A stretch of 64,000 nt of DNA from Escherichia phage AV108: the sequence record OR352938.1. One strand, 5' to 3'. Made by a program: the position numbers and the translations under genes. The notes under the pieces were generated by a model. The model saw only the letters and a list, made by a program, of their open reading frames with translations, did no database searches and was not told the origin of the DNA. This document shows positions 41,875 to 43,154 of the stretch, piece by piece. Every line of letters begins with the position of its first letter. Within the stretch, counting starts at the first letter, position 1.

Positions 41875-42093
41875 TTATTTATATCGCTTTCTCTCGCGAC
41901 GTTTTTGATCTTCTTCCTTGATAGAGTTAAATGCATCAAAAAGACACATGACACTAATAATAAACATAACCGTATTTTCTACGATATCCCACGGCTTCGC
42001 ATCAGTACAGATCCCCCAAACGGTAAGAAATGCAAATAAGGCAGAAGAGATCACAAGCAGGATACTTGCTAAGATATAAAAAGTCATTTTCAT
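41875..42093 (-). CDS. Small membrane protein (72 aa)
   Basis: Hydrophobic, basic C-terminus. Confidence 0.45.
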   Translation of the reverse strand: MKMTFYILASILLVISSALFAFLTVWGICTDAKPWDIVENTVMFIISVMCLFDAFNSIKEEDQKRRERKRYK

Positions 42094-42284
42094 GGTTTTA
42101 CCTCAATTCTTCGATATTCATCACACATCCACGCAGTAAGCAAGAATCCCAACACATAAGCAACAAAATACGTTAATGCTTCTTCTGGTTCGGTGCTATG
42201 CGCCATCATCAGACCAGCGAGAAAGGTCTTAACAATTACATTTAAAATAATTAGCCACGCAAATAATTTCATCGTTTGCCCCAT
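42090..42284 (-). CDS. Small membrane protein (64 aa)
   Basis: Hydrophobic; ATGA coupling. Confidence 0.45.
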   Translation of the reverse strand: MGQTMKLFAWLIILNVIVKTFLAGLMMAHSTEPEEALTYFVAYVLGFLLTAWMCDEYRRIEVKP

Positions 42285-42493
42285 TTCGGTCGAGTCTTTT
42301 CAAACTTATACATTCCGTAACAATCTCGAATCATCCACGTAACAAGAGCACCAGTCAACACAGACAATACACAGAAGAAGTAAAACGGTCCGGTTGCATT
42401 ATCAACATGAGCAAGCCAGGTAAAGAAAACACATGCAAGGAATGTAAAGAACATCATAAAGCACAAGAAAGCGAAATATTTTATACTACTCAT
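42269..42493 (-). CDS. Small membrane protein (~74 aa)
   Basis: Hydrophobic; start at MSSIKYF overlapping upstream stop. Confidence 0.4.
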   Translation of the reverse strand: MSSIKYFAFLCFMMFFTFLACVFFTWLAHVDNATGPFYFFCVLSVLTGALVTWMIRDCYGMYKFEKTRPKWGKR

Positions 42494-42600
42494 AGCGCCA
42501 CCATACAACAGATCATAAGAAACCCCAACGCAATAAGAATTGCGTCAAATTTAGTGAACTCCGGTCCACCTATCAACATCATTCGTTCCTGTTCATTCAT
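42490..42600 (-). CDS. Small membrane peptide (~36 aa; coordinates approximate)
   Basis: Hand-translated MNEQERMMLIGGPEFTKFDAILIALGFLMICCMVAL; below track cutoff. Confidence 0.3.
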   Translation of the reverse strand: MNEQERMMLIGGPEFTKFDAILIALGFLMICCMVAL

Positions 42601-42782
42601 AGATCACAGAGCCATCTGAAAGCACCACATAAAGCGAGCAGAATACTAGGTATAAACGAGACTAAAACAAGTTGGCAAAAATCATCTAAGGTAACACCGG
42701 AATAGCTACCTACTGTAACAACACCGATCATCAGACACAGAAAGAAAACAAATGCAATCAGAAACAAAGTATTGCTAAACAG

Positions 42783-42986
42783 TTAGTGATCATTAGACAC
42801 CCCACGACGATCAATTTCAAAAACTTTTTTATCATCAACGAAGCATGTCACAACTGCCTCGTTGACTTCCGCAAATTGTTGTGTTACCCACTTAAGGTCA
42901 GAGCGAAACAATGTTCTATTAATAACAAATGTTTTACCGCTCTTATCCTTACCCATAAATTTTGCTTTAACCATATCCAATTCCAT
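42783..42986 (-). CDS. Hypothetical protein (67 aa)
   Basis: Track ORF. Confidence 0.4.
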   Translation of the reverse strand: MELDMVKAKFMGKDKSGKTFVINRTLFRSDLKWVTQQFAEVNEAVVTCFVDDKKVFEIDRRGVSNDH

Positions 42987-42995
42987 ATTATCACC

Positions 42996-43154
42996 TTATT
43001 TGCTAATCGCTAAACCCAATCCGAAGAGAGCACCCGATGCTACAGTATACCCGAAAGTTTCAAAGGCAGTAAAGATATCTAAGCCACCAGCTAACAGAGT
43101 TGCAGTAAACAGAGTACCAGCTACGAACATAAAAGTTTTACCGATAAATTTCAT
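42996..43154 (-). CDS. Small membrane peptide (~52 aa; coordinates approximate)
   Basis: Hand-translated MKFIGKTFMFVAGTLFTATLLAGGLDIFTAFETFGYTVASGALFGLGLAISK; canonical GGAGAATCAAA RBS and promoter cassette upstream. Confidence 0.45.
   Translation of the reverse strand: MKFIGKTFMFVAGTLFTATLLAGGLDIFTAFETFGYTVASGALFGLGLAISK

Follow-up and report, generated by a model that had tools for sequence, protein, structure and literature searches.

The DNA analysed here, a window of 64,000 nucleotides from Escherichia phage AV108 (OR352938.1), belongs to a Krischvirus, i.e. an RB49-like T-even phage, and is about 98.6% identical to Sf20 and GEC-3S. At positions 41875-43154 it carries a run of small ORFs, all on the minus strand, which are the orthologues of RB49 ORF118c-124c. 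Each has an annotated CDS counterpart in RB49 and GEC-3S, and CDSs, promoters and terminators of related Krischvirus genomes are annotated at matching positions. The order 57B - ORF125 - ORF124 - dmd - ORF122 to ORF118 - terminator - ORF117 is the same, strand included, in the relatives that we compared (GEC-3S, RB49, SSG23, Makalu_002, W115 and metagenomic contigs). An earlier note on this DNA had listed six ORFs; all six exist where it placed them, on the minus strand, but one most likely starts elsewhere and a seventh, at 42597-42767, had been missed.

The first gene of the run is ORF124 (42996-43154), which encodes a Gly/Ala/Thr-rich product of 52 aa with two predicted transmembrane (TM) segments and is preceded by a strong Shine-Dalgarno sequence, GGAGAATCAAAATG; in its RB49 counterpart, ORF124c, TMHMM places helices at residues 7-29 and 33-50 (Nolan et al. 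2006, PMC1524935). The second, dmd (42783-42986, 67 aa, also with its own strong Shine-Dalgarno site), had been taken for one more membrane peptide and is nothing of the kind. Its product is a soluble antitoxin-type protein that scores 58.6 bits against Pfam PF17587 (cut-off 27), matches PDB 5hy3_B over residues 4-62 (E 2e-13), is hydrophilic (GRAVY -0.40) and is about 47% identical to its homologue T4 Dmd. In T4 this protein, the product of gene 61.5, is an antitoxin that inhibits the RnlA and LsoA toxins. Since it carries this cytoplasmic antitoxin, the cluster is not purely membrane-directed.

The third gene, ORF122 (42597-42793, 65 aa, the counterpart of RB49 ORF122c), has two TM helices in relatives, where its ATG at 42793 overlaps the end of dmd. 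In AV108 a private deletion of one nucleotide at the dmd stop (AAA to AA) removes this start, leaving an 11-codon stub (42793-42758) and a remaining frame (42767-42597) that opens with TTG and has no Shine-Dalgarno sequence. The deletion is shared by none of the 56 records in which we looked for it. The gene thus appears disrupted in AV108 and, if the AV108 sequence is right, this member of the set, at least, is dispensable. A second putative homopolymer indel of AV108 lies in 39925-39940.

Four further genes complete the run. ORF121 (42490-42600) encodes 36 aa with a single C-terminal TM helix. ORF120 (42269-42493, 74 aa) has two TM helices and a basic C-terminal tail, and ORF119 (42090-42272, 60 aa) two TM helices with an acidic loop. 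The most likely start of ORF119 is the ATG at 42272 rather than 42284, because the former makes an ATGA overlap and agrees with curated annotations and with the PHROG profile, whose alignment begins at residue 5 of the longer, 64-aa version. ORF118 (41875-42093, 72 aa) ends the series with two TM helices and a highly charged C-terminal tail, EEDQKRRERKRYK.

The set had been described as mostly single-helix. Kyte-Doolittle profiles and the published RB49 TMHMM results give the opposite picture: two hydrophobic segments are found in each of ORF118, 119, 120, 122 and 124, and one in ORF121 only. The five two-helix hairpins have K/R at both ends and an acidic loop, a distribution that obeys the positive-inside rule and predicts an N-in/C-in topology in the inner membrane. 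Translational coupling, in turn, was rightly proposed. Four consecutive ATGA start/stop overlaps run from ORF122 through ORF118 (42600/42597, 42493/42490, 42272/42269 and 42093/42090), and the last five cistrons, being chained in this way, are expected in roughly fixed proportions. We also asked, by BLASTP and shuffle-calibrated Smith-Waterman alignment, if the 13 small ORFs of this cluster and of the one at 38112-40302 are tandem paralogues; the best z, 3.6 over 78 pairs, is not significant.

The run lies in an accessory region rich in genes of this type. Upstream comes ORF125 (43221-43595, minus strand), a soluble protein of 124 aa (PHROG 15253) and the first gene of a module bounded by promoter-early stem-loops (PeSLs); its conservation is extreme (pi 0.017). 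The upstream neighbour of the unit is Acb1, an anti-CBASS nuclease (PDB 7t26, E 2e-43), and an RB49-type endolysin lies at 37692-38081, within the same hyperplastic region. Altogether, 13 small membrane ORFans occupy a 6-kb accessory stretch, which has raised allelic diversity and also holds two genes of proven counter-defence type, Acb1 and Dmd. The density of tiny membrane proteins, called unusual in the earlier note, is indeed striking within RB49, where 13 of the 20 ORFs with TMHMM helices fall in ORF103-124 (Nolan et al. 2006, PMC1524935), a clustering with a hypergeometric P of about 6e-12. Yet, Aeh1 and RB43 have comparable runs in the same table (PMC1524935), and such runs are thus typical of hyperplastic regions in T4-like phages generally.

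The operon is not a new observation. Annotations of the RB49 genes ORF118c-124c date back to 2003, a table of their TM helices, early promoters and terminators appeared in Nolan et al. 2006 (PMC1524935), PeSLs have been published (PMC2839356), and the annotation of W115 already calls four of these products 'putative membrane protein'. The one new lead is a structured untranslated tail that lies behind a T4-type late-promoter motif and may be a late small RNA.

Expression signals and the untranslated tail

The earlier note had given the small genes their own promoter cassettes, in the plural. We found one strong cassette, not several. It is a PeSL-type early promoter (43178-43214, minus strand) found by promoter scan, kept in relatives and present in the GEC-3S annotation. 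It reads TTGACA-17-TAAGAT, with the -35 box at 43214 and the -10 box ending at 43186, scores 10/12 as a sigma-70-type promoter, and its -10 box is overlapped by a G5-loop-C5 stem-loop, GGGGGTAGTAAGATACCCCC, at 43201-43178. In RB49 its counterpart is the predicted promoter Pe:60244 (Nolan et al. 2006, PMC1524935). From the type of this promoter we infer that the operon is expressed early.

The second cassette, at 43633-43698 and likewise on the minus strand, serves ORF125. It was identified by scan and as a member of repeat family D1, and it is conserved in relatives. A terminator hairpin (43698-43678) followed by a U-run precedes an early TTGACA-17-CATAAT promoter (43661-43633, score 11/12), so that the cassette is predicted to end the 57B/Acb1 transcript and to drive ORF125; its RB49 equivalents are Pe:60694 and the terminator at 60699-60717 (Nolan et al. 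2006, PMC1524935). At the other end, scan and the GEC-3S annotation place an intrinsic terminator at 41698-41725 (minus strand), with the hairpin AAGCCACTC-TTCG-GAGTGGCTT at 41725-41704 and a T-run. It is invariant in all relatives, corresponds to 58720-58737 in RB49 (Nolan et al. 2006, PMC1524935) and doubles as the stem-loop of the next PeSL. The early promoter of the latter (TTGACA-17-CATAAT, 41642-41670, minus strand, score 11/12 by scan; Pe:58699 in RB49, Nolan et al. 2006, PMC1524935) would drive ORF117 (DUF7421) and mark the downstream boundary of the module.

These cassettes belong to the PeSLs of RB49 and Phi1 described by Arbiol et al. 2010 (PMC2839356) and Comeau et al. 2014 (PMC4122927): they combine a near-consensus promoter in AT-rich intergenic DNA with a stem-loop and are repeated upstream of ORFans. 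Within 10 kb we count 3-4 copies of the repeat families D1 and D2, and by blastn PeSL repeats occur at 6-14 places per Krischvirus genome. Promoter and terminator activities were demonstrated experimentally for other PeSLs (Arbiol et al., PMC2839356); those studied, 192, 205/206 and 210/211, come from outside this operon (PMC2839356, PMC4122927).

Between ORF118 and the terminator lies an untranslated tail of 149 nt (41726-41874, minus strand), which is structured, GC-richer and predicted to form four hairpins (MFE -61.4, z -3.7). Just before it, spanning the last codons and the stop of ORF118, an exact T4-type late-promoter motif, TATAAATA, is found at 41876-41883 on the minus strand and makes a candidate late promoter. 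The motif WATAAATA occurs six times in the 64 kb, four times at 26-33 nt upstream of a Shine-Dalgarno sequence and start codon. Either the tail serves as 3'UTR of the operon, or it makes up the body of a late RNA of about 170 nt. That it is a discrete late small RNA of this length, running from TATAAATA to the terminator at 41725-41704, is less likely than not. In T4-type phages, no small RNA that acts in trans or is made late has been characterised functionally (PMC3014915) and, if true, this could be the first late one.

The searches that we made give the tail no other identity. ARAGORN finds neither tRNA nor tmRNA in it, its best Rfam match, at 25.8 bits, falls short of the gathering score of 100, and it holds no conserved small ORF. 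Within the window it has neither a second copy nor an antisense target of at least 13 nt, and it was not found in E. coli or GTDB genomes. Covariation is uninformative, as a compensatory change is seen in only one of the 54 predicted pairs and nearly all others do not vary. Moreover, the tail is as low in diversity (pi 0.023) as the downstream low-diversity block, and its conservation alone is thus no proof of constraint.

Conservation and distribution of the small genes

The earlier note had put forward comparative genomics as a check, and the small genes passed it. All 58 Krischvirus genomes examined have all seven, intact by tblastn coverage. Compared with the most divergent relative, the genes show dN/dS values from 0.05 to 0.57, i.e. 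below 1 in every case, and low even where dS reaches 1.2. The strongest constraint falls on ORF120 (0.05); the values for ORF118 and ORF121 are 0.10 and 0.15. Eleven related sequences keep the reading frames, and variable sites fall preferentially at third codon positions, a pattern well beyond what ORFs arising by chance would show; the start/stop overlaps and Shine-Dalgarno sites are conserved in relatives. Frameshifts in ORF120 and ORF118 occur in L013, a relative from metagenomes. The cluster is a block of high diversity (pi 0.04-0.13) between flanks of low diversity (pi 0.013-0.017).

Each membrane ORF matches its own PHROG family, with E values between 1e-29 and 1e-54: ORF118 PHROG 15168 (2e-53), ORF119 15717 (8e-46), ORF120 15290 (6e-54), ORF121 15282 (2e-29), ORF122 17225 (6e-36) and ORF124 16462 (7e-36). 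The matches cover the whole profile except for ORF122, which because of the frameshift aligns at positions 10-65 only. Dmd excepted, searches of Pfam, PHROGs and NCBIfam found no family with a known role, just compositional matches below threshold. The six membrane ORFs are absent from every other phage, bacterial or metagenome lineage that we searched. ORF118, 119, 120, 122 and 124 have no match outside Krischvirus among 50,697 phage genomes (tblastn, E<=1); a word-indexed search of 5.8 billion proteins found no relative of ORF120 outside the genus, and in a full HMMER search of 1.84 billion representatives ORF118 matched only itself. IMG/VR, JGI metagenomes and GTDB genomes added just four close relatives. 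From these patterns, the six products are best described as small predicted membrane proteins restricted to one genus and kept under purifying selection.

Possible roles of the operon

The anatomy is the firmest part of our interpretation: we think it highly probable that this is a genuine early operon in which genes for small membrane proteins are joined by dmd. To the whole explanation, i.e. an early operon with an envelope-directed protective role, we give a probability of roughly 60%. The operon, set in a hyperplastic region of accessory genes, would be transcribed immediate-early by the host RNA polymerase, in the order promoter (43214-43186), ORF124, dmd, ORF122, 121, 120, 119, 118, the tail of about 150 nt and the terminator. 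Minutes after infection, the membrane proteins would already be inserted in the inner membrane of the host, perhaps as a hetero-oligomer, and would provide a non-essential protection directed at the envelope. The likeliest outcomes would be that a superinfecting phage is kept out or that a membrane-linked host defence is neutralised. We offer this assignment to superinfection exclusion or counter-defence tentatively, as the odds are somewhat against it. The five chained hairpin proteins may form one hetero-oligomeric complex in the inner membrane that acts in exclusion independently of Imm or blocks a defence.

An accessory, protective context is suggested by Dmd in the operon, Acb1 next to it, the high-diversity block and the apparent lack of an Imm homologue. 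The presence of Dmd and Acb1 argues only weakly for such a role. As for Imm, a tblastn search with the T4 protein gave 1256 matches, and among 60 of them taken at even spacing there was no Krischvirus, hence the genus seems to lack a homologue. Compared directly with the 13 small ORFs and with the window, T4 Imm gave best E values of 4.6 (BLASTP) and 3.4 (tblastn), and we found no homology between T4 Sp and the ORFs described here or any other part of the window.

The same early promoter and predicted membrane location would also suit peptides that inhibit or perturb the inner-membrane machinery of the host, be it transporters, respiration, division or secretion, so that resources are redirected early in infection. 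Nolan et al. (PMC1524935) found regions of novel ORFs under-represented in plasmid libraries, which suggests that they are toxic to the host. Yet, we found no homology to known inhibitors and ORF122 looks dispensable. High allelic diversity within one genus on one host species better fits a target in an arms race than conserved machinery, and we regard such a takeover of the host as unlikely.

It is still less probable that the two-helix proteins with charged tails, ORF118 and ORF120, control lysis as holin-, antiholin- or pinholin-like timing regulators. In size, in the number of helices and in the basic tail they are like class II holins, and the endolysin shares their hyperplastic region. 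The match of ORF120 to Phage_holin_3_6 (PF07332; E 0.076, 13.5 bits) is, however, below the cut-off of 28.4 bits, as is typical of hydrophobic composition, and no other holin family was matched. The promoter of the unit is of the early sigma-70 type, not late. Furthermore, the endolysin lies 3.8 kb downstream, beyond three other PeSL promoters and two terminators, and the membrane cluster that adjoins it is the other one, at 38112-40302. T4-type phages, for their part, use the large gpT holin.

Finally, ORFans without relatives beyond one genus, some of them frameshifted in AV108 or L013, might be chance or decaying frames on a T-rich strand, mere spacer in a recombination-prone region, but this is very improbable and largely refuted by intact genes in 58 of 58 isolate genomes, dN/dS well below 1, conserved overlaps and Shine-Dalgarno sites, and the bias of variation towards third positions.

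A protective early operon remains our preferred reading. The accessory region, with its 13 ORFans, Acb1 and Dmd, is compact enough to be screened by deletion and for exclusion or on defence panels, and the phages that carry it belong to a group used for therapy.

Comparison with known systems

The closest systems are naturally the RB49-type orthologues, i.e. RB49 ORF118c-124c (RB49p118-p124) and their counterparts in, among others, Phi1, JSE, GEC-3S and W115. They share with AV108 the genes, their order and strand, the overlaps and the positions of promoter and terminator, at 93-100% protein identity; the private deletion in ORF122 sets AV108 apart, the other differences being point substitutions only. 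With PeSLs the cassettes share a near-consensus TTGACA-N17-TAnnAT promoter, a G-run/loop/C-run hairpin over the -10 box or a terminator hairpin upstream, an AT-rich upstream region, a GGAG Shine-Dalgarno sequence and ATG at the 3' end, and a position before ORFans in a hyperplastic region, with no substantive difference.

The tail recalls rnaC and rnaD, stable RNAs of the T4 tRNA region between 57B and e: it too is small, structured and untranslated, and its place between 57B and the lysozyme region is syntenic with theirs. Unlike them, it has no tRNA neighbours, does not come from a tRNA precursor, is bracketed by a late-promoter motif and an intrinsic terminator, and shows no similarity to them in sequence.

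The Krischvirus Dmd is of similar length to T4 Dmd and has early-type expression signals, as the T4 protein does. T4 dmd lies between genes 41 and 61.4, whereas here it sits among membrane ORFans in the hyperplastic region from 57B to the endolysin. A conserved dmd neighbourhood can be rejected: in T4 the order is dmd-61.4-sp, and the 61.4 protein is soluble and unrelated. Since T4 dmd lies elsewhere, with a soluble protein and Sp as neighbours, its association with membrane ORFs is not a feature conserved across genera. Sp itself, encoded two genes from T4 dmd, is a small, early, envelope-directed protein of a T-even phage, as the membrane products described here are predicted to be. The other such protein is T4 Imm, a two-helix protein that gives superinfection immunity. 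Its gene sits at another genomic location and its sequence has no detectable similarity to any ORF found here or to the rest of the window. It has 83 residues and two TM helices, is expressed early and is directed at the inner membrane or envelope; small size, two helices, early expression and a membrane location are predicted for the hairpin proteins of this operon as well.

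Conservation and predicted membrane topology of the small genes

The cluster of small membrane ORFs that the earlier note placed at 41875-43154 is real, if partly misdescribed, and had been annotated and published before. Megablast with 41500-43700 matched 58 phage records, every one of the genus Krischvirus (including RB49, Phi1, JSE, GEC-3S and Sf20), at 93-98.6% identity over the full length, and more sensitive blastn added no other genus. The curated GEC-3S and RB49 annotations put the locus between gene 57B and the endolysin, with all its genes on the window's minus strand. 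The listed ORFs are present on that strand and are counterparts of RB49p118-p124, each covering the whole profile of its own PHROG family (E 1e-29 to 1e-54). The list of six nevertheless left out ORF122 (42597-42767, between ORF121 and dmd), which matches PHROG 17225. It also took for a membrane peptide the product of 42783-42986, which is the hydrophilic protein Dmd (Pfam PF17587, 58.6 bits against a cut-off of 27; PDB 5hy3_B, E 2e-13; about 47% identity to T4 Dmd). ORF119 most likely starts at 42272 rather than 42284, giving a predicted 60 aa, because this start overlaps ORF120 in an ATGA and is the one that both the PHROG profile and the curated annotations use.

The peptides had been called mostly single-helix. 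Kyte-Doolittle profiles instead predict two helices each in ORF118, 119, 120, 122 and 124 and one in ORF121, in agreement with the TMHMM table of Nolan et al. 2006 (PMC1524935), which has five two-helix proteins and a single-helix ORF121. The two-helix proteins have K/R at either end, with D/E in the short loop joining the helices, which by the positive-inside rule predicts N-in/C-in hairpins.

An alignment of the 2.1-kb unit in eleven versions drew on seven isolates, two contigs from IMG/VR and three from metagenomes, with DNA identity down to about 88% in the most distant one. The seven reading frames are intact throughout, except in one metagenomic contig with indels, and third codon positions hold an excess of the variable sites. 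Measured against the relative that differs most, dN/dS is 0.52 in ORF124, 0.41 in dmd, 0.57 in ORF122, 0.15 in ORF121, 0.05 in ORF120, 0.18 in ORF119 and 0.10 in ORF118, and low values persist even at dS 1.1-1.2; that these are non-functional reading frames is essentially excluded. Comparative genomics had been proposed as a check, and tblastn finds ORF118, 119, 120, 122 and 124 in all 58 Krischvirus genomes, with no match (E<=1) beyond the genus among 50,697 phage records. Only near-identical sequences were found for ORF120 in 5.8 billion proteins, for ORF118 in 1.84 billion representatives (full HMMER), and in IMG/VR, JGI metagenomes and GTDB genomes. At the level of sequence similarity, the small ORFs are genuine ORFans restricted to Krischvirus. 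Paralogy among themselves or with the 38112-40302 cluster was considered, and no relationship was detectable.

Within the genome, the density of such genes is indeed unusual: 13 of the 20 RB49 ORFs with TM helices fall in ORF103-124 (Nolan et al. 2006; hypergeometric P about 6e-12). Since Aeh1 and RB43 show comparable runs in the same table (PMC1524935), the trait characterises T4-like hyperplastic regions in general and has been public since 2006.

AV108 has two peculiarities. At the dmd stop (42783-42794, minus) it reads AA where all relatives read AAA, a private 1-nt deletion found in none of 56 matching Krischvirus records, which frameshifts the normal ORF122 ATG and removes the usual start; the choice lies between a genuine loss of ORF122 and a sequencing error in a homopolymer. 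In the other cluster, a run of five A at 39931-39935 (minus; ORF 39723-40118), where RB49 and GEC-3S have four, joins ORF111c and ORF110c (65 aa and two helices each) into a 131-aa four-helix ORF. Both changes being homopolymer indels, an artefact of sequencing and a true mutation are equally likely. Separately, a subgroup consisting of SSG23, Makalu_002 and three metagenome contigs (relatives' sequences L005, L006, L012, L013 and L014) has an extra G near the dmd 3' end, equivalent to 42800, which cuts Dmd to 64 aa and makes the dmd/ORF122 junction a TAATG overlap.

The transcription unit and its untranslated tail

After 57B, a cassette combines a terminator hairpin (43698-43678, minus) with a near-consensus promoter (43661-43633, minus) driving ORF125. 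The earlier note claimed promoter cassettes for the cluster, which does have a promoter of its own, TTGACA-17-TAAGAT (43214-43186, minus), directly before ORF124 (42996-43154); its -10 is overlapped by a G5-loop-C5 hairpin. Strong Shine-Dalgarno sequences precede ORF124 and dmd, and the ORF122 start codon and the 3' end of dmd overlap in relatives. Translational coupling is borne out by ATGA overlaps at four junctions, ORF122/121, 121/120, 120/119 and 119/118 (ORF121, 42490-42600; ORF120, 42269-42493; ORF118, 41875-42093). An untranslated stretch of 149 bases follows ORF118, up to an invariant intrinsic terminator (41725-41704, minus), immediately past which lies the promoter for ORF117 (41670-41642, minus).

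These composite elements are the PeSLs (promoter-early stem-loop cassettes) of RB49 and Phi1, other copies of which were demonstrated to have promoter and terminator activity (Arbiol et al., PMC2839356) and have been tied to modular shuffling (PMC2839356; PMC4122927). The matching RB49 early promoters are Pe:60694, Pe:60244 and Pe:58699, and the matching terminators 60699-60717 and 58720-58737 (Nolan et al. 2006, PMC1524935). At the 3' ends of several cassettes the ribosome-binding region GGAGAATCAAA(A)ATG is repeated (43155-43168, 43596-43609, 41344-41357 and 40638-40651, all minus). GGAGAATCAAA agrees at 10 of 11 positions with the RegB endoribonuclease cleavage consensus GGAGRAYARAA (quoted in PMC3014915); promoter-proximal cistrons may thus be candidate RegB targets, and we infer that their expression would be shut off early.

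The sole new lead is a possible late small RNA in the ORF118 tail. The 149-nt gap is unusual in so compact a genome. Its GC content is 0.49 against about 0.38 around, it holds blocks of 45 and 75 nt invariant in all relatives, and its fold comprises four hairpins and the terminator (MFE -61.4 kcal/mol, z -3.7, matched by none of 200 shuffles). The final codons of ORF118 together with its stop form TATAAATA, a T4-type late-promoter motif. The 64-kb window has six WATAAATA sites, with about 6.6 expected by chance if the exact 8-mer is counted by itself. In the classic layout of a late promoter, four of them precede the Shine-Dalgarno and start codon of a sizeable ORF by 26-33 nt; the site at TATAAATA is the fifth. 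The published RB49 promoter tables list no late promoter at the ORF118 stop (Nolan et al. 2006, PMC1524935). Taken together, GC content, fold, invariant blocks, the TATAAATA motif and the WATAAATA contexts tentatively suggest a candidate region (41698-41883, minus) of motif, tail and intrinsic terminator, from which a discrete late RNA of about 170 nt might be made (about 41870 to about 41700), a reading we hold to be less likely than not. Covariation is uninformative, with a compensatory change in one of 54 predicted pairs, and pi (0.023) is as low as in the downstream low-diversity block. The tail matches no tRNA, Rfam family or T4 rnaC/rnaD, nor anything in E. coli or GTDB genomes, and no obvious antisense target for it lies in the 64-kb window.

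Possible roles of the membrane proteins

None of the six membrane proteins is assigned a function by any family, structure or paper searched. Dmd is a proven counter-defence protein in T4, and dmd sits inside their operon. The gene adjoining upstream (43705-44175, minus), which annotations of relatives label 'RNA ligase/57B', is clearly homologous to Acb1 (PDB 7t26, E 2e-43), an anti-CBASS nuclease. The two known counter-defence genes are no more than 1.4 kb apart. ORF125 (43221-43595, minus), situated between Acb1 and the operon with dmd, encodes a soluble 124-aa product that is almost invariant in all relatives (dN about 0) and has no match in Pfam or NCBIfam.

In ten genomes nucleotide diversity is 3-8 times as high in the ORF124-ORF118 block (41875-43154) as in its flanks (pi 0.04-0.13, against 0.017 in ORF125 and 0.013 in ORF117 at 41410-41595), an excess seen at all codon positions; ORF122 identity within Krischvirus falls to 60-80%. 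Against one relative, dS varies from gene to gene between 0.06 and 1.2. The mosaic pattern suggests recombination between divergent alleles.

The small ORFs show no similarity to T4 Imm and Sp, and tblastn with T4 Imm gave no Krischvirus record among 60 evenly spaced matches of 1256. Given Dmd in the operon, the adjoining Acb1, the diversity of the block and the lack of an Imm match, we favour, at a probability of roughly one in three, a putative accessory protection directed at the envelope: superinfection exclusion by proteins that resemble Imm in action without being related to it, or else interference with membrane-linked defence. The products of the five chained cistrons may come together in a single complex. 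The membrane-targeting function proposed in the earlier note is plausible as a hypothesis. Inhibition of the host during takeover is improbable and weaker than a protective role, and control of lysis, weaker too, is less probable still. The remaining probability falls to other roles.

The setting of dmd differs from that in T4, where it is flanked by gene 41 and the soluble 61.4, and sp is two genes away; in Krischvirus it lies among membrane ORFans. Going by this difference in gene order, an association of dmd with membrane ORFans is specific to Krischvirus.
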